Origin: Anaerovoracaceae bacterium
GTDB taxonomy: Bacteria > Bacillota > Clostridia > Peptostreptococcales > Anaerovoracaceae
Assembly: GCA_041752735.1 (NCBI GenBank)
Contig: JBGSVW010000006.1
Coordinates: 30,399 to 94,398 of the forward strand
Length of the DNA stretch: 64,000 nt
Reading direction: 5' to 3'
The notes beneath the pieces are model-generated. The model ran no database searches, had not been told where the DNA came from, and saw nothing but the letters and a program-made list of their open reading frames with translations. A program made the translations under genes and the position numbers. Of the stretch, positions 3,804 to 36,407 are shown piece by piece. Position 1 is the stretch's first letter, and each line of letters starts with the position of its first letter.

Positions 3804-4739
3804 TTACTTGTTGGCAATCAGTTTATATGTTTCTCCGATTACTTCCGCTATGGTCACCACCATAATGATGATAAAAATGATTTTAAAACCTAGCAACCCG
3901 GTGTCTTGGAGATAAAGTCCATTATCTGATAACATCACTCCAAACAACGCAACAGTGGCCAGCTCTTTGGTCAGTAAGAATAAGCGAAGCCGTTTGGTAA
4001 TTTCCCGGGTCTTAATTAGGAGAAAATCGTAGATTATATCTAGCACATACAAGAGCGTTAAGACCAGCACGTACATTGAAAAGACTTGGATATTGATCGT
4101 ATGCTGCACAGGGATGCCCACGGAAAATGCTTCTTCCGCCATGGTCACAACCTGGGGATAAACGTTGAGCAATACAATAAAGATGGTACTGAAAAACAGC
4201 TCTGCTATGATTCCGGGTAAGGATACCTTTTGATTTCCCACTTGAATTTGATCCAACTCTTTGATGGTCCAGTTTTCGTCCAGGTTAATGACGTTTTCTT
4301 TGGCATATCGGGTTATCAGTATGAAGACTAATGTCAAGCCACCCACGCCACCTATGAAGGCGCTGCAGATCCGAACCGGCACTGTCAGAATAGCTGAGAC
4401 CAATGCCATGCCCTCCGGTTGCTCTGCCAACAACTCGACGGCAAAGACTACGACAAAGGCAATGGCTAGAGCACCCGCAATAATTTTCATTATCATAAAG
4501 TATAAATCATAGTAGCCCATCCCAATGACGTAGCGATTTTCTGTGTAACGAGCTGCCACTTCCCGAGGTGAGCCGAATCCGGTAATCACCTTTTCAACTT
4601 GCTCAGCGTTGGGCTCTGGACCGTATTCTGTTTCGATTTGATCCATCAGCAAGGATTTTAGTTCTTCTTTGATGTCCTGCCTGTTTTTGTAAGGCAAATG
4701 CATGCCAATTGCGTATATGTACGTCTCCAATAGTTTCAT
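3804..4739 (-). CDS. PadR-associated polytopic membrane protein (HAAS/DUF1700-like N-terminal domain)
   Basis: The 311-aa ORF lies 13 nt downstream of a PadR gene. The soluble N-terminus MKLLETYIYAIGMHLPYKNRQDIKEELKSLLMDQIE is followed by several hydrophobic helices. The function is inferred from this pairing. Confidence 0.6.
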   Translation of the reverse strand: MKLLETYIYAIGMHLPYKNRQDIKEELKSLLMDQIETEYGPEPNAEQVEKVITGFGSPREVAARYTENRYVIGMGYYDLYFMIMKIIAGALAIAFVVVFAVELLAEQPEGMALVSAILTVPVRICSAFIGGVGGLTLVFILITRYAKENVINLDENWTIKELDQIQVGNQKVSLPGIIAELFFSTIFIVLLNVYPQVVTMAEEAFSVGIPVQHTINIQVFSMYVLVLTLLYVLDIIYDFLLIKTREITKRLRLFLLTKELATVALFGVMLSDNGLYLQDTGLLGFKIIFIIIMVVTIAEVIGETYKLIANK

Positions 4740-4752
4740 TTTCTTTCTCCCT

Positions 4753-5097
4753 TCAACGGTTTGATATCATTGTTTCGATTACTATGTTGGTTTTTTGCCA
4801 TTCTTTGATTAGCTCATCCAGGATTTCTCTGCCGGTATCACTAATTTTGTAGTATTTCCGGGGTCTGGCCTCAGTTGTATCCCATTCGCTTGACAGGAGT
4901 CCCTGTTTTTCCAAACGTCGCAGTAAGGGGTACAACGTGTTTTGATCGATGGATACGCCGGCCTCCTGTAGCTGGTTAATGAGGGAATATCCGTATCCTG
5001 GTTGACTTGCATTTAGCAATACGATAAACACCAATGTCCCACGATTTAGCTCTTGCAGTAAATTCCCCAAAATAGTTTGCTTTTCTTTTTCACTCAT
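4753..5097 (-). CDS. PadR family transcriptional regulator
   Basis: GYGYSLINQLQEAGVSIDQNTLYPLLRRLEKQGLLSSEWDTTEARPRKYYKISDTGREIL is a classic PadR winged helix. Confidence 0.9.
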   Translation of the reverse strand: MSEKEKQTILGNLLQELNRGTLVFIVLLNASQPGYGYSLINQLQEAGVSIDQNTLYPLLRRLEKQGLLSSEWDTTEARPRKYYKISDTGREILDELIKEWQKTNIVIETMISNR

Positions 5098-5125
5098 TTC
5101 ATCGCCTCCTGTTCTTCATGATTGT

Positions 5126-5155
5126 ATTATAGTGTGTATCACACAGCATTGTCAA
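5126..5155 (-). promoter_or_regulatory. sigma-A type promoter of the PadR operon with overlapping palindrome (candidate PadR operator)
   Basis: On the minus strand, TTGACA (5155..5150) is followed by an 18-nt spacer and TATAAT (5131..5126). The spacer contains the GTGTG-TAT-CACAC dyad (5132-5144). Confidence 0.55.
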
Positions 5156-5193
5156 TACCATAATATTAATTTTTTTAATTTATTTTTTGTGAG

Positions 5194-5232
5194 CAAAAAA
5201 GCACCTCCGATAGTGTCCGCCACCGGGGTGCT
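5194..5232 (-). terminator. intrinsic terminator downstream of the MerR-family gene
   Basis: An AGCACC...GGTGCT hairpin is followed by a T6 run when read on the minus strand. Confidence 0.6.
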
Positions 5233-5280
5233 TCATTGTTGTAATTGATTCTTATAATATTTGGGTTGGGGGGTGCCCCT

Positions 5281-6084
5281 TTACTTTGAAATCGGGATCT
5301 GCAGTTCTGTCAGCCAGTCCGCTTCATTTTGTTTGTTCCAAATGCCGTCGATGTAGTTCTCCCTCGGGTTGTCGGCAATCTGGTACCCGTTCTTTTCAAT
5401 CCAGTCGAAGGCGTAACCGTAGGCATCCCGCAAGTCACTGTAAGGTCCTTTGTGCATGACTGAAACCACGGTTACCGGTGGCATTTCTTTGAATACGATG
5501 TCATCGAAGTTTCCTTTTGCTTCGGCCACCGCTTCGCAAAATTCCACGTTGATGTCTTCTTCTTTGTACTCTTCATCCAAGTATGCGATAAAGCAATATT
5601 CCGGGGATGCGCACTTCAGATCCGGATACTTTTCCATGACCTTGACGCCGATTTCGGGGATTAGATCAAAGTACGCGTCATAGTTGGGCACCGTCATAAC
5701 CTTTGAGTATACCGTGCATGATGGGATTTCTTTGATTGTTGCCTGATAATTCATATTTTCTACCTCCAGTCCGGATAACAAATAGTTTATTCTGGAGAGT
5801 TTCCGTTTCAATTCGTCCATTTCCGCTATCACCTCGTGCCGATGTTGTTCCAACACAAACTGACGGTCGAAACCGGACAAAACCAGCATGGTTTCAGAAA
5901 TTGGCAGGCCAACCTGCCGGAGGGACTGGATGTTGTGCAACTCAAGAAGCTGCTTGGTGGAATACATCCGGTATCCGGTGCTCTCATCTACACGATCGGG
6001 CTTTAGAAGTCCCACTTCATCGTAATATCTGAGGGTTTTGACCGTTACTTTTCCGATTTTTGAAAACTCGCCGATTCGGTACAT
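5281..6084 (-). CDS. MerR family transcriptional regulator with C-terminal GyrI-like effector-binding domain (BmrR-like)
   Basis: MYRIGEFSKIGKVTVKTLRYYDEVGLLKPDRVDESTGYRMYS is a MerR HTH. I set the start at the Met preceded by AAGGAGAG, because the 6147 start of the ORF track would cover the promoter. Confidence 0.85.
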   Translation of the reverse strand: MYRIGEFSKIGKVTVKTLRYYDEVGLLKPDRVDESTGYRMYSTKQLLELHNIQSLRQVGLPISETMLVLSGFDRQFVLEQHRHEVIAEMDELKRKLSRINYLLSGLEVENMNYQATIKEIPSCTVYSKVMTVPNYDAYFDLIPEIGVKVMEKYPDLKCASPEYCFIAYLDEEYKEEDINVEFCEAVAEAKGNFDDIVFKEMPPVTVVSVMHKGPYSDLRDAYGYAFDWIEKNGYQIADNPRENYIDGIWNKQNEADWLTELQIPISK

Positions 6085-6109
6085 GAAATCTCTCCTTGCT
6101 TCTATTGTC

Positions 6110-6140
6110 ATTCTGAACCCTCCCCCGACGGGAGTGTCAA
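6110..6140 (-). promoter_or_regulatory. MerR-type promoter with 19-bp spacer and internal dyad
   Basis: On the minus strand, TTGACA (6140..6135) is followed by the 19-nt spacer CTCCCGTCGGGGGAGGGTT, which contains a CTCCC/GGGAG dyad, and then CAGAAT (6115..6110). A 19-bp spacer is the hallmark of MerR-controlled promoters. Confidence 0.55.
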
Positions 6141-6315
6141 TAGGCAAAAATGTAATTCTATTTCTGACTGATTTTTATGACAGATTGTTCCTATAATATA
6201 TCATAAAGGGGCGAACTTATAAATATGCCCCTCTATACTCCTTGAAAGCCTCACCTACATTGTGCGTATAACATAACTACCGCCCTTGTTTTTTGTGTGT
6301 TGCACACAAATTTGC

Positions 6316-6344
6316 TTGACGAAACCGCCTTTTTCATATATACT
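6316..6344 (+). promoter_or_regulatory. sigma-A promoter of the leu-pheA operon
   Basis: TTGACG (6316-6321) is followed by a 17-nt spacer and TATACT (6339-6344). It lies about 50 nt upstream of the leuA ATG. Confidence 0.55.
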
Positions 6345-6393
6345 CTCCATAATCGAGGCGAGGTTTCACTTGCCCACAGAAAGGATATCGGAC

Positions 6394-8109
6394 ATGAAGA
6401 ATTCTAGTAAATCTGGCAAATACGGCGTCAGCTACTATATGCCTCCAAAATGGAACGCCTCCTGGGTACAAAAGGAGTATATCGACAACGCACCCCTATG
6501 GTGCAGCGTTGACCTACGAGACGGAAATCAGGCTCTCATCGTTCCAATGACCCTGGAGCAAAAACTGGAGTTCTTTACTTTTTTGGTCGAACTGGGTTTC
6601 AAACAAATCGAAGTGGGTTTTCCCGCCGCATCGGACACCGAGTACCAATTCTTGCGAGCGCTAATTGAAAAAAATCTGGTACCTGATGACGTACAGCTTC
6701 AAGTACTGACCCAGTCACGAACCCACATCATCAAAAAAACCTTTGATGCCCTGGTGGGTGCCAAGAATGCCATCGTCCACCTGTATAATTCCACCTCAGT
6801 GGCTCAGCGGGAGCAGGTCTTCCGTGCCTCCAAAGAAGAGATCATCGACATTGCCATCAAAGGCGCTAAGCAAATCAAAAAGACCGCGGAGAAGTATCCT
6901 GAAACGAAGTTTCAGTTTGAGTACTCCCCCGAGAGTTTCACCGGCACTGAGCCGGAATTTGCGTTGGAAATTTGCAACGCCGTCATTGATGTTTGGCAAC
7001 CTACAGCGGATTGCAAAGTCATTATCAACTTGCCCAGCACGGTGCAGATGTCCATGCCTCATGTGTATGCTACACAAATCCAATATATGAACGATAATCT
7101 ACACAATCGGGAGAACGTGCTGATTTCCCTTCATCCCCACAATGACCGGGGTACCGGTGTTGCAGATGCGGAGCTGGGGCTTCTGGCCGGCGCAGACCGA
7201 GTGGAAGGAACCCTCTTCGGTAACGGCGAACGAACAGGCAACGTAGATATCATCACCCTAGCACTGAATATGTACACCCACGGGGTTGACCCGGGGCTCA
7301 ATCTATATGACATGCCACGGATTGTGGCTATGAGCGAGAAATTTACCGACATTAAAGTCCATCCCCGGCAGCCCTACGGCGGCCAGCTGGTATTTGCCGC
7401 ATTCTCCGGTTCCCACCAAGATGCCATCGCCAAAGGCATGGCGTATCGATCCGAAAACAGTCTCCATCGTTGGGCGGTTCCCTATCTTCCCATTGATCCA
7501 ACTGATTTGGGCAGGGAATACGAGGCGGATGTAATCCGAATCAACAGCCAGTCCGGCAAAGGCGGCGTGGCCTTTGTGCTGGAATACAACTTTGGCTACA
7601 TCATTCCACTGAAGATGCGAGAAGAACTGGGTTATATGATCAAGGACATCTCCGACAAAACCCACAAGGAACTAGCCCCTAAAGAAATCCACAAGCACTT
7701 CACCAAAGAATATGTCAATCGTTTCTCACCTCTGGATATCCAGGATGCCACCTACAAAAAGAGCGCGGACATCAAGAAAAGCAGCACCTTTGATGTAGAC
7801 TTGAAAGTCCATCTCTTTGGAGATCATTACGAATTACATGGCGTGGGCAATGGCCGTCTGGATGCAGTCCGCAACGCTTTGAACAATAGTCCATATACCT
7901 TCGATTACACCTTTGTCACCTATTCGGAACATGCGTTGGAATCGGATTCCAACTCCCGTGCCGTGGCCTATGTCGCCATAGCCGACAAAGAAGAAAACGT
8001 TTTCTGGGGTGTAGGGCTTCACGAAGACATCGTCTTCGCATCCATTAACGCACTGGTCAGCGCCATTAACCGGATGACCGAAAAACACACAATGCAGGAG
8101 GAAAAATAA
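6394..8109 (+). CDS. leuA: 2-isopropylmalate synthase (long form)
   Basis: Matches include [14 protein letters not shown] and [11 protein letters not shown], plus a C-terminal LeuA dimerisation/regulatory region. The start is the Met after AAAGGA; the TTG at 6286 was rejected. Confidence 0.9.
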
Positions 8110-9392
8110 TGGCAATGACCATGACACAAAAAATATTAGCTGCCAAAGCAGGCCTTTCCCATGTTACCCCGGGACAATTGATCCGGGTGAAGCTGGATTT
8201 GGTGTTGGGCAACGACATTACCTCACCGGTAGCCATCAACGAATTCAACAAGGGCGGATTTACCCAGGTATTTGATAAGGACAAAATCGCCCTGGTCATG
8301 GACCACTTCACCCCCAACAAAGACATCAAGGCTGCCGAGCAATGCAAGCAGTGCCGAACCTTTGCTGGTGATCTTCAGATTTCCAATTTCTTTGATGTGG
8401 GCCAAATGGGCATTGAGCACGTATTGCTTCCCGAAAAAGGACTGGTGGTTGCCGGAGACTGTGTCATTGGCGCCGACTCCCACACCTGCACCTATGGCGC
8501 GTTAGGCGCGTTTTCCACCGGAGTGGGAAGCACGGACATGGCCGTAGGCATGGCCACCGGGGAAGCCTGGTTCAAAGTGCCTTCAGCCCTGCGATTCCGA
8601 CTGACCGGTTCCCTGCCCCCCTATGTTGGCGGCAAGGATGTGATTCTTCATATCATCGGCATGATCGGCGTTGACGGCGCTTTGTATAAATCCATGGAGT
8701 TTACCGGCCCTGGTCTTGCTTCCCTGTCCATTGATGACCGACTTTGTATGTCCAACATGGCCATTGAAGCCGGCGCGAAGAATGGGATTTTCCCGGTGGA
8801 TGAAATCACCAAAGCGTATCTGGATCAACGATCTTCCCGGTCCTATACGGTCTACGAGGCAGATGCGGATGCGGAGTATGACGAAACCTTTGAAATCAAT
8901 CTATCGGAGATTCGTCCCACTGTGGCCTTCCCCCACCTGCCGGAAAACACAAAAACCATTGACGAAATCCGCAGCCTGGCGCAAGATATTGTTATAGACC
9001 AGGTGGTCATTGGCTCCTGTACCAACGGACGTTTGTCCGACATGGCAGAAGCGGCGGCCATCCTGAAGGAGCAAACGGTTTCCTCTCACGTCCGGACGAT
9101 TATCATTCCGGGCAGCCAGGAAGTGTACAAGCAGTGCATCGTCAAAGGCTATCTTGAGATTTTCGTCGATGCGGGTTGTGTGGTTTCCACCCCCACCTGC
9201 GGCCCCTGTCTGGGTGGTCACATGGGCATCCTAGCAGCCGGCGAACGTTGTGTTGCCACCACCAACCGGAACTTTGTGGGTCGGATGGGTCACGTGGAAT
9301 CAGAAATCTATCTGGCCGGACCTGCCATTGCAGCGGCTTCTGCCATTGCCGGAATCATCACAGCGCCCGGGGAGGTAACATCATGCAAGTAA
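8109..9392 (+). CDS. leuC: 3-isopropylmalate dehydratase large subunit
   Basis: It has aconitase-family motifs ([28 protein letters not shown]). The start overlaps the leuA stop (TAATG). Confidence 0.9.
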
Positions 9393-33623: not shown

Positions 33624-34328
33624 TTATCTTTGTGATATCCTTGTGCGTAATCCGAACATGATATCAGCAATCCCCAGGAGGAACAATACCGATTTTCCCA
33701 TGGGTAATATCCATGCTACGATGGCCAGCAAAGGCCCCAAACCCCTTGGGACTTTCTTCATGAAAAAAAACATCAATAACAGTGATGTGCCCTGTAATGC
33801 AAAGGCAGCTTCAAAGATATTCTGGACATTGAGCATCACCAGGTCCCCGTCAGGAAAACCGGTTAGACCAACAATCCAGGACATCACAAAAATCAATAGC
33901 CAGCCGTAAATGCCAGTTCTAGGCCATGAAAATTCCCGAAGTCGTGCCATCTGCCAGGCGCCCCGGTCTCCGTTTCGTACAAACTTACTGAGAATCAAAT
34001 ATTCCAAATAGGCCACTACTGCGCCCATCAATAATATCGTGGATGGAAAATCCGAAATGGCAATGTCAATGATTTGTCGGAGTGCTTCCTCCTGATCAGG
34101 AAGACTTTGTAAAAGCATAGGCATGGCTGCCTCATAACTTGCTTCTAGCTCGGCGGCTACACTACTTCCGGATGCAGCTGCAAAAATAAAAATCAGCACG
34201 CTGCTCAATCCCACTGAAACCGTGGCATTCAGCACGCCATTGTAAGGATTTAATCCTCGCCTGATACAAATCACCAGCGATGGAATCGGGAAAACGAGAA
34301 TGCCTAATAAGATTAGCGTTGTGTACAT
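33624..34328 (-). CDS. DUF2232 (YybS-like) membrane protein
   Basis: It is a polytopic membrane protein in the conserved Firmicute position between rpsR and rplI. Confidence 0.7.
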   Translation of the reverse strand: MYTTLILLGILVFPIPSLVICIRRGLNPYNGVLNATVSVGLSSVLIFIFAAASGSSVAAELEASYEAAMPMLLQSLPDQEEALRQIIDIAISDFPSTILLMGAVVAYLEYLILSKFVRNGDRGAWQMARLREFSWPRTGIYGWLLIFVMSWIVGLTGFPDGDLVMLNVQNIFEAAFALQGTSLLLMFFFMKKVPRGLGPLLAIVAWILPMGKSVLFLLGIADIMFGLRTRISQR

Positions 34329-34645
34329 GAAAGCTCCTTTTTGTTTGGAATTTGCCCTAATTATATGCCCTAATAGTATAACATATCAGAATTGGCATAT
34401 CCACTAATCATCACTGCAGTAGTGTGCGAAATTTTAATAGAATTCGCAAACGGGGTGGTCGGTTTTGGATCTTGGTGGTCAAACTTTAATTGGAGGCTCT
34501 ATTACTCTTTCGCGATTATGACAAAACCGGCTTTTTTTGCATTTTTGCATATTCTTTTCCATTTTTGAGTCGGATATTATGCCTATAACGAAGAAAAACT
34601 GAGTTTGGCATAATTTCATTGTTTTTGAATAGGAATGCATAAACT

Positions 34646-34690
34646 GAAAGACAGCTATAACAGATTGTACGAACTATAACCGTTGCAATT
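34646..34690. repeat. degenerate third copy of the rpsR-terminator-like module
   Basis: AGACAGCTATAACAGATTGTACGAACTATAACCGTTGC aligns with copies 1 and 2, but the right arm no longer pairs. Confidence 0.4.
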
Positions 34691-34830
34691 ACAGGTCCGT
34701 GAAAAACACCGATAAGCGCAATTATGTTTTTTGCTAAATTTTCGCCGATTTGTCATAATTGTCTTTTTCTACTAAGTCACAAACGATGCAAAATCGGATT
34801 TATGGGGTTTTTGACATAATATTTTTCCAT

Positions 34831-34875
34831 TAAAACAGCCACAACAGATTGCTCTATTGTGGCCGTTTTTGATTT
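34831..34875. repeat. terminator-hairpin module, copy 1 (terminates the RNase III-like operon)
   Basis: TAAAACAGCCACAACAGATTGCTCTATTGTGGCCGTTTTTGA matches about 37 of 44 positions of the copy at 36351-36398. On the minus strand it forms a 10-bp hairpin followed by a T-run. Confidence 0.7.
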
Positions 34876-34899
34876 CATTCTACATCTCGCTAAAAATCA

Positions 34900-35064
34900 T
34901 TACTCATCCTCATCATCCCACATTGAACGATTTTGCTCTTCTTCCTCACGGCTATATTCACTGTCATCCCAATTACAAACACATTCTCCACGGGTTACAC
35001 TGTATCCATCTTTTTCTATATATTCATAATTACCCGACTCATAATTATAACACCATTTTGTCAT
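34900..35064 (-). CDS. 54-aa acidic Cys-containing small protein, translationally coupled to the RNase III-like gene
   Basis: The ATG at 35064 lies 2 nt after the upstream TAG, and GAGGAGG lies inside the upstream gene end. The peptide is MTKWCYNYESGNYEYIEKDGYSVTRGECVCNWDDSEYSREEEEQNRSMWDDEDE. It is below the ORF track cutoff. Confidence 0.55.
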   Translation of the reverse strand: MTKWCYNYESGNYEYIEKDGYSVTRGECVCNWDDSEYSREEEEQNRSMWDDEDE

Positions 35065-35066
35065 AG

Positions 35067-36128
35067 CTATTCCTCCTCAATGCCTAAAACATATTTCAAA
35101 GCACTGTATGCTGCATCTTTTTTTGCATCTTTTTTTGATGAAGATATCCCCGAAAAGCTATATTTTTCCTCTTTAATATGGCATTCACAACTCCAAACAG
35201 GGTTTCCATTTTTATCATGCTGCTCTATAAAATTATAAATCGGTATTGAAAAATAATCTCTTCTGGCAAGAATTTCTAATTGGTTAATTGCTTGCTCCCA
35301 TCTGGGATTTTCAATTTCATCCCTAATAGAAAATAGCTTATTATTATTCTCTAAATAGTTATATGCAACTTCACAAACTGCACTTCTTGCCTCTTTTTTT
35401 GATTCACCAAAACCTCTGAAAATCGGCATACTATCATCAATTTTTAGAAGGCAATGATATTTCACTTTATTAATTCTACTATCTCCCAATATATTGAACC
35501 CTTGAGAAACACCATTAAACGATAAATAAAATGTACTTTCATAACTACTCTTTTTAAAATGAAATCGTGGGATCGAACCATTGTACCTTGATACCCATTC
35601 CTGAATTTCCTGTATATAGTTAATATTTTCTCCGCTCTCAAGCAAACTGTCCATATCCAGCATTATTTCAACAACACTTTGCATTTCTTCAAGATTCCAG
35701 TTAGCGTCAAGCGCAACAGCACCTAAAATAGCTTCAAATAAGTCTTCTTTTACTGCTGGTTCATTTTGTACATTGTTTTTTAGGTCACCTTTTCCTAATA
35801 TCAGATAATCGGCCAAACCCAGATTGTCAATGCAATTAGCCAGCGTTTCCTTTTTTACCAGTCCTGTTTTAATTTCTGTTAATCTGTCCTCCTGATAATC
35901 GGATATAAACTCATTACAATCTTCAGTAAAACATCCATACATGTCCGTTAGCAGTTTAACAACAACTAAATCCAAGACTTTATCTCCTACAAACTCTAAA
36001 ACCTCATTGTTTTCGCCTCCGTTTTCTTCTGAGTATGATCGTCTGATAAATGCCTGTTGTAACAAGTCCTTGTTTTTAAATTCATATCCTATTTGATCCT
36101 GAACAAATGTTAAATCATTTTTCCGCAT
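35067..36128 (-). CDS. RNase III domain protein with two tandem dsRBD-like domains (accessory paralog)
   Basis: It has the catalytic signature NEVLEFVGDKVLD and the second acidic pair KEDLFEAILGAVALD. Two dsRBD alpha2 signatures follow: GFGESKKEARSAVCEVAYNYL and GISSSKKDAKKDAAYSALKYVL. Confidence 0.75.
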   Translation of the reverse strand: MRKNDLTFVQDQIGYEFKNKDLLQQAFIRRSYSEENGGENNEVLEFVGDKVLDLVVVKLLTDMYGCFTEDCNEFISDYQEDRLTEIKTGLVKKETLANCIDNLGLADYLILGKGDLKNNVQNEPAVKEDLFEAILGAVALDANWNLEEMQSVVEIMLDMDSLLESGENINYIQEIQEWVSRYNGSIPRFHFKKSSYESTFYLSFNGVSQGFNILGDSRINKVKYHCLLKIDDSMPIFRGFGESKKEARSAVCEVAYNYLENNNKLFSIRDEIENPRWEQAINQLEILARRDYFSIPIYNFIEQHDKNGNPVWSCECHIKEEKYSFSGISSSKKDAKKDAAYSALKYVLGIEEE

Positions 36129-36350
36129 AAAAAATACCTCCTATAATTTAATATTACTCGAAGGCATAATATGTTTATTACGTTTCTATCTCCCATTGGT
36201 AAGGAAATAAATCGATAAAACAGTATAAATTCAATTCTTTGTTTCCCTTTGTTTACAACCATTCACTTGCATGAAATAGAAATAAACTGTACAGATACAA
36301 TGTCTTGGATTTAAATTATTATACCTTAAGTTGCCAACATTATAACACTA

Positions 36351-36398
36351 TAATATTAAAAAAGCCACAACAGATTTCTCTGTTATGGCCATTTCTCG
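36351..36398. repeat. terminator-hairpin module, copy 2 (rpsR terminator)
   Basis: The sequence is TAAAAAAGCCACAACAGATTTCTCTGTTATGGCCATTTCTCGA. On the minus strand GCCATAACAG/CTGTTGTGGC is followed by T6, directly after the rpsR stop. Confidence 0.7.
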
Positions 36399-36407
36399 AG
36401 AAAATTC

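Follow-up and report, generated by a model that had tools for sequence, protein, structure and literature searches.

Escherichia coli RNase III (Rnc) limits its own synthesis by cleaving an irregular hairpin, the rncO element, in its 5' untranslated region (5' UTR) (PMC3867540). Prokaryotic class 1 enzymes are described as carrying a single double-stranded RNA-binding domain (dsRBD), and the combination of an RNase III domain with two dsRBDs as unique to Arabidopsis RTL2 and Mucor R3B2 (PMC4395119). Mini-III of Bacillus is a second, specialised enzyme of the RNase III family found beside Rnc in Firmicutes; it has no dsRBD and a defined role in rRNA maturation. A protein inhibitor can also control RNase III, as in the case of YmdB. 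Here we describe a cassette found on the reverse strand of a 64,000-nucleotide (nt) stretch of DNA from an Anaerovoracaceae bacterium (contig JBGSVW010000006.1, positions 30,399 to 94,398; this whole stretch is referred to as the window). The cassette carries a promoter, a structured 5' leader, a gene for an RNase III of 353 amino acids (aa) with two dsRBDs, and a 54-aa open reading frame (ORF) for a small acidic protein. We favour, with moderate confidence, the reading that it encodes a mobile, leader-controlled accessory RNase III that is probably autoregulated and is modulated by its acidic partner.

Like E. coli Rnc, the enzyme carries the full acidic signature in its RNase III catalytic domain, has a dsRBD behind that domain, and is encoded by a gene whose 5' UTR contains a structured element. 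It differs in its second dsRBD, in its length (353 aa as against about 225), in a score below that of the housekeeping family model TIGR02191, in its accessory and mobile character, and in its coupling to an acidic partner. The leader, too, departs from rncO: it is a three-way junction of about 200 nt with an alternative hairpin that sequesters the Shine-Dalgarno sequence (SD), and it has no Rfam match at E ≤ 1. In architecture the enzyme is like RTL2 and R3B2, but its family is bacterial and has retained the canonical catalytic signature that is missing from R3B2 (PMC8136814). The likeness considered here is one of architecture, and independent duplication of the domain is as likely an origin as common descent with RTL2/R3B2. 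Like Mini-III, it is a further RNase III-family enzyme of Firmicutes; unlike Mini-III, it has two dsRBDs, a patchy distribution and a leader of its own. In barnase–barstar and colicin–immunity pairs, as here, a nuclease gene is followed by one for a small, very acidic protein made in step. However, the small protein of the window has no sequence or fold similarity to barstar, the immunity proteins or YmdB, the partner is dispensable in many lineages, and the RNase carries neither a secretion signal nor a toxin-delivery domain, in contrast to colicins and barnase.

Literature searches returned no description of the RNase family, the partner protein or the leader, and no NCBIfam family or function-bearing PHROG family was found to cover the RNase or the small protein. 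An earlier reading of the window (the first-pass annotation) had not recognised the nuclease and its small acidic partner as a described system, which these searches support. The cassette is nevertheless richer than that annotation had it, for it also includes its own promoter, a leader resembling a switch, and a partner protein that comes in two types; the promoter and the leader, which is the most informative part of the cassette, were absent from it. We assign the RNase to a large undescribed bacterial family, an RNase III subfamily that has a partner and an RNA operator of its own, for which the mechanism proposed below is plausible. A large bacterial family with an RNase III domain plus a pair of dsRBDs runs contrary to the single-dsRBD view of prokaryotic enzymes. 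With it come two more undescribed components, namely a family of small acidic proteins (about 2750 clusters) and a leader of about 200 nt, absent from Rfam, with a two-state design. The cassette could show how a potentially dangerous dsRNA nuclease stays safe while moving between hosts, and an autoregulatory RNA switch of a new kind, a new protein that inhibits RNase III, or a defence activity at the RNA level in gut Firmicutes may come to light through it.

An RNase III with two dsRNA-binding domains

The Pfam family Ribonucleas_3_3 (PF14622) was matched at residues 19–143 of the 353-aa protein (E 2.7e-20) and PF00636 with an E value of 1.1e-15, while the dsrm model gave two passing stretches, the best of them at residues 287–346. 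An AlphaFold2 model built with 23 homologues (predicted local distance difference test, pLDDT, 88.5; predicted template-modelling score, pTM, 0.75) consists of a helical catalytic domain and two alpha-beta-beta-beta-alpha units, at residues 171–261 and 277–348. Hence the two C-terminal dsRBDs that had been proposed in the first-pass annotation were recovered by family models and by structure prediction alike. The top matches of the protein in Foldseek and PDB profile searches were bacterial RNase III, Dicer, DCL3 and Drosha.

The catalytic domain has the complete set of acidic residues of the class 1 architecture of the RNase III superfamily, and E42, E45, D49, D129 and E132 were invariant in an alignment of 23 family members. 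Since all the catalytic residues are kept, the protein looks like a catalytically competent class-1-type RNase III with an extra dsRBD, in agreement with the probable competence that had been read from its two acidic clusters. The enzyme presumably works as a homodimer. Its second dsRBD retains the canonical RNA-contact motifs (the GNP loop and SKKxAKK), K332, K336, K337, G308, N309 and P310 being invariant or nearly so. The first dsRBD is divergent, with an insertion of about 30 residues at the expected beta1–beta2 loop and a modified alpha2 motif. It may be noted that the window protein is 9 residues short, after about residue 71, relative to its closest relatives.

Could the gene simply be the housekeeping rnc with a duplicated dsRBD? 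The complete catalytic domain would fit, and so would the NCBIfam model TIGR02191, the equivalog of housekeeping RNase III, which aligns over residues 10–257. Moreover, no second RNase III was found in the window by tblastn with nominal reference sequences for the Rnc proteins of E. coli and Bacillus subtilis. However, the TIGR02191 score of 140.3 bits falls short of the cut-off of 166.25; identity to these nominal references is 25% for E. coli Rnc and 31% for B. subtilis Rnc; and the single dsRBD, the length of 220–250 aa and the stable core-gene position of a housekeeping Rnc are all lacking. The family also stands apart. When 1.8 billion cluster representatives (clusters at 50% identity) were searched with HMMER, 293 proteins were retrieved at E ≤ 1e-30 as against 9496 at E ≤ 1e-3, and most of the 293 were 320–400 aa long and aligned end to end; the family members form a separate high-scoring group. 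Finally, the gene is absent from the same site in contigs with an identical RpsR, and its context varies between loci, as described below. We therefore consider the housekeeping reading most improbable. That the gene is a paralog set apart from canonical Rnc, as the first-pass annotation had supposed, is made probable by the alleles with an empty site, by the TIGR02191 score below the cut-off and by the patchiness of the distribution.

An accessory cassette between rpsR and yybS

In the window, rpsF-ssb-rpsR lie upstream of the cassette, and a DUF2232 (yybS-like) gene, rplI and dnaB lie downstream of it. The GC content is 31–35% from about 34250 to 36400, compared with 45–52% in the flanks (32.7% for the cassette itself, 46.5% for the remainder of the window). 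Both the gene order and the GC drop thus bear out the earlier description of an AT-rich insert splitting the rpsF-ssb-rpsR / yybS-rplI-dnaB arrangement.

For a comparison of empty sites, the rpsR–yybS interval was aligned among contigs that code for exactly the RpsR protein of the window. The interval proved polymorphic next to this identical RpsR, and three alleles were seen: an empty interval measuring some 150 nt, in which another terminator, the native one, is present (L087, L090, L092), an interval with a non-coding insert of about 520 nt and no cassette (L086, L088, L093), and an interval with the cassette (the window and L089). Because empty-site alleles adjoin an identical RpsR and the distribution is patchy, the RNase gene and the small ORF are an accessory pair, not part of the core genome. 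The cassette of the window starts right past the rpsR stop codon, and the native terminator region of rpsR is replaced, the upstream hairpin of the cassette standing in place of the native terminator. A clean insertion with a short target duplication was considered for the window and rejected, as the interval alignment indicates replacement of the terminator region.

A conserved RNA structure upstream of the gene

A promoter and a conserved region of about 200 nt precede the RNase gene in 74 of 80 loci, despite unrelated surroundings, and the 200–300 nt upstream of the gene are more conserved than the RNase protein. The promoter is of the sigma-70 type, with TTGACA-17-TATAAT at the aligned position in other members and an extended -10 element in the window. 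The leader folds as a three-way junction closed by a helix, P1; a long conserved arm 1 is followed by a variable arm 2 and then, directly 3' of P1, by a 10-bp hairpin that takes up the SD. In the alignment of 70 leaders, the family consensus is AAGGCAUAAU / AUUAUGCCUU for P1 and CCUUUUAGUA / UACUGAAAGG for the SD hairpin. Arm 1 contains the near-invariant stretches ACAUUGU, AUGCAAGUGAA and AAACAAAGAAUU, and its internal and hairpin loops are conserved above the helices.

The P1/P2/P3 fold was paired in 97.1% of the alignment cells, compared with 40–54% when the partners were slid by 1–3 columns. Compensatory double changes occurred in 16 of its 33 pairs, and 0 of 500 shuffles were as good. For the SD hairpin, 95.4% of the cells were paired (slid controls, 42–60%) and 6 of the 10 pairs showed double changes. 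A covariance model of the leader gave one sense-strand match per locus just upstream of the gene, at 120–213 bits, the remaining matches being weaker antisense echoes at the same places; the single match in the window lies at 36123–36332 (121 bits, E 1e-18). When Rfam 15 was searched, there was no match at E ≤ 1 in the window between 33500 and 37500, and none at the gathering score in 10 other loci. Rfam presumably includes an rncO model.

The leader is tied to this gene family. A 38-nt degenerate pattern from arm 1 was found in 62 loci, once in each and always upstream of the RNase gene. Among 123 independent matches to the pattern in IMG/VR and metagenome contigs, 109 had the RNase gene behind them at the distance expected; a further 10 ran off the contig, 3 were chance matches in AT-rich DNA, and 1 was a leader cut by an insertion sequence (IS). 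The leader thus goes with the RNase gene in 109 of the 110 informative matches, and it is a conserved RNA structure found only before this gene family. The single exception (L198, ~5600–5900) is a genuine leader interrupted after arm 2 by an insertion with an IS21-like transposase, and it is the sole real leader without an RNase. An upstream ORF of 13 codons, starting from a conserved AUG in the P3b loop, was also considered; it was rejected for want of an SD and because the flanking helix varies by compensatory changes that fit the constraints on an RNA and not those on a peptide.

Alternative pairings at the Shine-Dalgarno sequence

P1 (alignment columns 7–18/223–233) and the SD hairpin (columns 230–239/252–261) share the sequence CCUU at columns 230–233, that is, at 36161–36164 of the window. 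Because both use the same CCUU, neither can form in full together with the other. ViennaRNA ensemble calculations on the 70 leaders gave a mean probability of 0.55 for P1 and of 0.46 for the outer part of the SD hairpin. When the 5' part of the leader was removed, the unpaired probability of the SD strand fell in 70 of 70 leaders, from a mean of 0.28 to 0.03. An intact P1 is therefore predicted to favour an open ribosome-binding site, and the loss of its 5' strand to close that site.

The main rival to an autoregulatory step is a ligand-sensing riboswitch of the same architecture, or another sensor of a trans-acting factor, in which a ligand or a cellular RNA or protein would stabilise P1 and so turn RNase translation on. 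The layout, in which P1 closes a three-way junction and overlaps the anti-SD with its 3' strand, is the classic one of an aptamer and its expression platform, and the loops are conserved to near invariance, above the helices. However, metabolite riboswitches usually control several gene families of one pathway, and a tie to a single RNA-binding protein is what is typically seen with autoregulatory leaders. The present leader stands before one gene family only, the lone exception being the IS-cut copy, and the regulated product is itself a dsRNA-binding nuclease. The tie to one gene argues against a metabolite ligand, and we regard a sensor of either kind as unlikely.

The small acidic partner protein

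The 54-aa ORF lies where the first-pass annotation had placed it, with its start codon 2 nt past the TAG of the RNase gene and its SD embedded in the end of that gene. The protein is acidic and rich in aromatic residues, and we refer to it as type A. Its consensus is M.KWCFNYESGEYEYI.KDGFS..RGEYVYNWDDSEY over a conserved 38-aa core (also given as M.KWCFNYESGEYEYI.KDGFS..RGEYVYNWDDSEYRREEEE). Behind the core comes an acidic tail of variable sequence, in many cases with (W/F)DDEDE or a terminal Trp at its end. The three cysteines and the acidic tail had been pointed out as features of the protein. The acidic tail does recur in the homologues; only Cys5 of the three cysteines is conserved, Cys28 and Cys30 of the window copy being Tyr in nearly all of them.

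Using tblastn, the 54-aa type of ORF was found directly downstream of the RNase gene in 39 of 80 genome loci and in 62 of 109 metagenome loci. A small ORF is present in roughly 55–60% of the loci, while about 40–45% have no small ORF at all, so that the expected conservation beside RNase homologues proved frequent and not universal. Its start lies anywhere between a few nt before the RNase stop codon and 13 nt past it, and a GGAGG-like SD lies 6–10 nt before its ATG, conserved in 39 homologous loci. Over the 39 codons of the conserved core in these 39 homologues, the entropies at codon positions 1, 2 and 3 were 0.37, 0.34 and 1.18 bits. This concentration of the variation at the third codon position identifies the small ORF as a translated gene under purifying selection.

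A profile search returned 2753 clusters of the small protein; the best 120 of these were all 53–89 aa long and had no Pfam domain and no informative name. Nothing significant was found for it in Pfam, NCBIfam, PADLOC or PHROGs, or with Foldseek against the PDB. Its AlphaFold2 model (pLDDT 80) has short beta-hairpins and an acidic C-terminal helix. In a reverse look-up from two of the small proteins, 7 loci were obtained, and the upstream gene was the RNase III paralog in 5 of them. Four of these 5 are annotated as RNase III; the fifth (383 aa, L220) lies in the same position with no Pfam match on record. The remaining 2 loci, on short contigs, have a truncated unannotated ORF at the position of the RNase.

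Another clade has a second type of partner at the same position, type B, which is acidic, rich in Met and Asp and 55–75 aa long, with the consensus MGK.FFDFEDGDF...MDSDGNMMMRMGDNMAMDMDSG...SLWDDEDE. It lies directly past the RNase stop codon in L003, L004, L007, L020, L070, L148, L162, L168 and L196. Type B aligns with type A (KWCFNY-type) at both ends, through the N-terminal pattern and the WDDEDE-like C-terminus.

When the RNases were arranged in a neighbour-joining tree, members with the partner were spread over deep, scattered clades, and several other clades lacked it. Remnants of pseudogenised small ORFs are present in L025 and L030, and a large Lachnospiraceae clade has lost the small ORF while the active site of the RNase is intact. 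The partner is thus ancestral, co-inherited and repeatedly lost. A partner that is co-inherited but dispensable argues against a strict toxin–antitoxin relationship, and because it is lost again and again while the active site stays intact, it is not an obligatory antidote.

These losses bear directly on a reading of the pair as a toxin–antidote or abortive-infection (defence) module, in which the RNase III would be toxic, the acidic protein would be a labile inhibitor, and infection or stress would free the nuclease. The layout speaks for such a module, the nuclease coming first and a tiny, translationally coupled acidic protein second, as in the barnase–barstar and colicin–immunity systems, and an accessory, patchy, low-GC distribution would suit it too. 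However, an intact active site in L025, L030 and the Lachnospiraceae clade is unexpected for a lethal toxin. The antitoxin of a type II system would always be present and would have a DNA-binding domain; here the partner is often missing, and no DNA-binding domain of that kind was found in it by family searches or in its model. Neither the RNase nor the small protein had a match in PADLOC-DB 2.0 at E ≤ 1. We hold this reading to be doubtful; its genomic side is taken up with the contexts below.

Proposed autoregulation and modulation

In the mechanism that we propose, the cassette would be a single transcription unit, from whose own promoter the leader, the RNase III and, in most lineages, the translationally coupled small acidic protein would be expressed. 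As long as P1 is intact, it would hold the CCUU and leave the SD free for translation. The RNase III would bind, and probably cut, the long irregular duplex of P1 and arm 1 in its own mRNA, giving negative autoregulation: with the 5' strand of P1 lost, the 3' fragment would refold into the SD-sequestering hairpin and translation would be turned off. The enzyme would thereby be held at a low set-point in any host that the cassette enters. That the enzyme cuts its own leader is suggested by the refolding calculation and by three further points: the regulated product is a dsRNA-binding nuclease, the leader never goes with another gene, and E. coli offers a precedent. The small acidic protein, made in step with the enzyme, would most likely bind it, for example at its basic dsRNA-binding surfaces, and damp or redirect its activity as a modulator rather than as an obligatory antidote. 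Candidate substrates would be the dsRNA of mobile elements or phages; alternatively, the enzyme could act in the antisense control of toxin genes.

Several points weigh against this mechanism. The SD hairpin of the window's own leader is weak, with a probability of 0.16 as against 0.84 for P1. Near-invariant unpaired nucleotides, a three-way junction and the layout of P1 with an expression platform are equally typical of riboswitches. The canonical RNase III of the host, and not the paralog, could act on the leader. As for the partner, the loci without any small ORF keep the catalytic residues all the same; being dispensable, the partner could have a role unrelated to inhibition. A mutual-information search for RNase residues tied to the presence of the partner gave only weak, phylogenetically confounded signals. 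The binding of the enzyme to its leader and to its partner is in each case a proposal.

Distribution and genomic contexts

In the protein database, more than 120 proteins of 350–400 aa are 54–65% identical to the window RNase, and their names are automatic only ('putative dsRNA-binding protein', 'hypothetical protein' or 'ribonuclease III'). When one genome was scanned for each species, relatives turned up in 313 genomes. The best 80 of these are Clostridia isolates or metagenome-assembled genomes (MAGs), or else MAGs that are named at a higher rank or apparently mis-binned; they include Lachnospiraceae, Oscillospiraceae, Acutalibacteraceae, Ruminococcus, Blautia, Lachnospira and Pseudobutyrivibrio. 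The family is abundant in human, mouse and ruminant gut metagenomes.

Besides the RNase itself, no gene cluster is common to more than 8 of the 80 loci, so that there is no conserved neighbour apart from the small ORF. The 149 immediate neighbours belong to 102 different Pfam families, from housekeeping to mobile-element and restriction types. Among them are excisionase-like HTH_17, TnpV, transposases, a recombinase, ResIII/restriction enzymes, a type I methylase (MTase), HepT, AEP-TOTE and a pAgo-like protein; ResIII/RE_endonuc, a type IV restriction endonuclease (REase) and PbeA are also seen beside the cassette. Individual loci have the cassette between rnf/tatD and apbE or beside three serine recombinases, and in many loci it stands between housekeeping genes. 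Its GC content is below that of the flanks in 65 of 75 loci. Because the neighbours vary, the GC is low and no neighbour gene is conserved, we conclude that the cassette is horizontally mobile and travels, as cargo or independently, into many contexts.

On an IMG/VR contig (L095, 1–4212), the genes next to the cassette code for a phage tail-fibre-like protein, a holin-like protein and a GH25 endolysin; the cassette stands there at the end of the lysis module of a prophage, in a place typical of a 'moron'. Only 3 leader-carrying IMG/VR contigs were found. No full-length, high-identity counterpart was present in the phage and plasmid records searched. A phage or plasmid origin was accordingly set aside, these records having yielded only distant canonical rnc genes and a paralog of 506 aa on a megaplasmid. 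The latter, a different 'ribonuclease III domain-containing protein', is encoded at 76931–78451 of the 420-kb plasmid pRUMAL01 of Ruminococcus albus 7 (L225) and is 26% identical to the window RNase over residues 6–316. Because pRUMAL01 carries this distinct protein, there may be further accessory RNase III paralogs in Clostridia.

The contexts return us to the toxin–antidote or defence reading. Some of the neighbours are genes of mobile elements or of defence (the restriction and modification types, PbeA, pAgo-like, HepT and AEP-TOTE proteins, the serine recombinases and the prophage lysis module above), which might favour it. However, many loci lie between housekeeping genes. A wider role in defence or genetic conflict is possible. 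As one tentative form of it, the cassette might be an autonomous module of dsRNA surveillance or genetic conflict: an extra, Dicer/Drosha-like RNase III would grip, by means of its second dsRBD, the long dsRNA of phages, of plasmids or of convergent transcription in mobile elements, a switch leader of a new class would hold it in check by sensing the enzyme or an infection signal, and the partners would form a new family of dsRNA-mimicking acidic inhibitors. We give this a small share of our confidence. Mobility, low GC, frequent placement at variable or element-borne sites and self-control would suit conflict or defence; they would also suit the control of antisense and toxin RNAs. In B. subtilis, RNase III is reported to exert such control over prophage toxins (PMC3531473).

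In one lineage, the neighbouring gene raises the question of a bacterial pathway resembling RNA interference (RNAi), in which the two-dsRBD RNase III would dice the products of a polymerase related to RNA-dependent RNA polymerases (RdRPs), as in Mucor. A gene for a 1019-aa protein, convergent with the cassette, lies 90 nt downstream of it (L031, L074, L146 and L218–L221), and the protein matches the eukaryotic-type RdRP family PF05183 with 49.6 bits (E 3.4e-13). The Mucor pathway pairs an enzyme of RNase III domain plus two dsRBDs with RdRPs (PMC4395119, PMC8136814), and the PF05183 gene beside the cassette is an echo of that fungal RdRP and R3B2 pathway. The echo is confined to one lineage among about 220 loci, however, and the two genes are convergent and not co-transcribed. 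Bacterial relatives of PF05183, YonO among them, are mobile-element polymerases that make RNA on DNA templates, which also counts against the RNAi-like reading; we judge it very unlikely. In L219, of an Oscillospiraceae lineage, the 1019-aa gene is at 5088–8147(-), next to a 279-aa ORF at 4256–5095(-). The 1019-aa protein passes the Pfam gathering score, and neither protein matches PADLOC.

Cassette boundaries and divergent relatives

The features of the cassette are collected in Table 1.

Table 1. Positions of the cassette and its parts in the window (in order of transcription; bp, base-paired strands are separated by a slash)
Feature	Position	Strand	Sequence	Basis or remark
Whole cassette (hairpin, promoter, leader, RNase III gene, small ORF, hairpin)	34816..36407	-		rpsR-yybS interval alignment
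Upstream hairpin terminator, with U-run	36363..36390	-	GGCCAUAACAGAGAAAUCUGUUGUGGCU	Terminator scan; core of left 53-nt repeat, 36342-36394
Extended -10 promoter element	36339..36347	-	TGTTATAAT	Sequence and alignment of 70 upstream regions
Structured 5' leader RNA, ~204 nt	36129..36332	-		Alignment of 70 loci, covariation, covariance model
P1, 5' strand	36317..36327	-	AAGGUAUAAUA	Leader alignment
Leader arm 1	36225..36314	-		Alignment and covariation
P2	36309-36314/36225-36230	-		Part of arm 1
P2b	36297-36300/36239-36242	-		Part of arm 1
P3	36282-36287/36251-36256	-		Part of arm 1
P3b	36271-36277/36261-36266	-		Part of arm 1
P1, 3' strand	36161..36171	-	UAUUAUGCCUU	Its CCUU, 36161-36164, also starts the anti-SD strand
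SD-sequestering hairpin	36137..36164	-		Covariation and ensemble calculation
Anti-SD strand	36155-36164	-	CCUUCGAGUA	Pairs with 36137-36146
SD strand	36137-36146	-	UUAUAGGAGG	SD AGGAGG, 36137-36142
RNase III ORF, 353 aa	35067..36128	-		TAG, 35067-35069
RNase III catalytic domain, aa 1-163	35640-36128	-		Pfam, NCBIfam, AlphaFold2
Divergent dsRBD1, aa 168-262	35343-35627	-		AlphaFold2, Pfam
Canonical dsRBD2, aa 275-350	35079-35306	-		AlphaFold2, Pfam
SD of small ORF	35072-35078	-	GAGGAGG	Within 3' end of RNase gene; translational coupling
Small ORF, 54 aa	34900..35064	-		ATG, 35062-35064; 2 nt past RNase TAG
Downstream hairpin, likely cassette terminator	34837..34864	-	GGCCACAAUAGAGCAAUCUGUUGUGGCU	Core of right 53-nt repeat, 34816-34868

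The cassette of the window is bounded by a pair of direct repeats of 53 nt with 79% identity, each with a terminator-like hairpin at its core. The motif of this hairpin occurs twice in the window, both times at a cassette end (0 expected by chance). The same pair brackets the cassette of a Parasporobacterium MAG (L001, at 5741–5775 and 7300–7335), which there too follows rpsF-ssb-rpsR; the flanking hairpin sequence is shared although the two RNases are only 65% identical. In L078 a different hairpin pair, of 47 nt, brackets the cassette, one copy at about 320–370 and the other directly past its small ORF. Flanking direct repeats were clear only in these three loci and were not found in most loci examined, and for that reason we claim no general insertion mechanism.

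Between its rpsR and its cassette, the Parasporobacterium MAG has four direct repeats of TTGGTGTAAAA, and a truncated ParA-like ORF of 82 aa lies past the cassette (L001, 5640–5740; L081, 9510–9758). An element of plasmid-like or integrative type may have left these remnants.

A non-coding insert of about 400 nt, at 34413–34815 of the window, separates the cassette from the yybS promoter and has only short, unconvincing ORFs. It occurs with the cassette in the window and partly in L089, occurs without the cassette in L086, L088 and L093, and is absent from L087, L090 and L092. The insert was considered as a repeat or a known RNA; both were rejected, as it had no Rfam match and no other copy in the window or the loci.

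Finally, a divergent subclade of the RNases (L040, L053, L056 and L062; also L047) is without the full leader and without the small ORF, L040 keeping arm 1 of the leader only (41 bits). In L040, L053, L056 and L062, two conserved genes of the subclade's own lie downstream in place of the small ORF, and this is possibly a domesticated operon version of the cassette.

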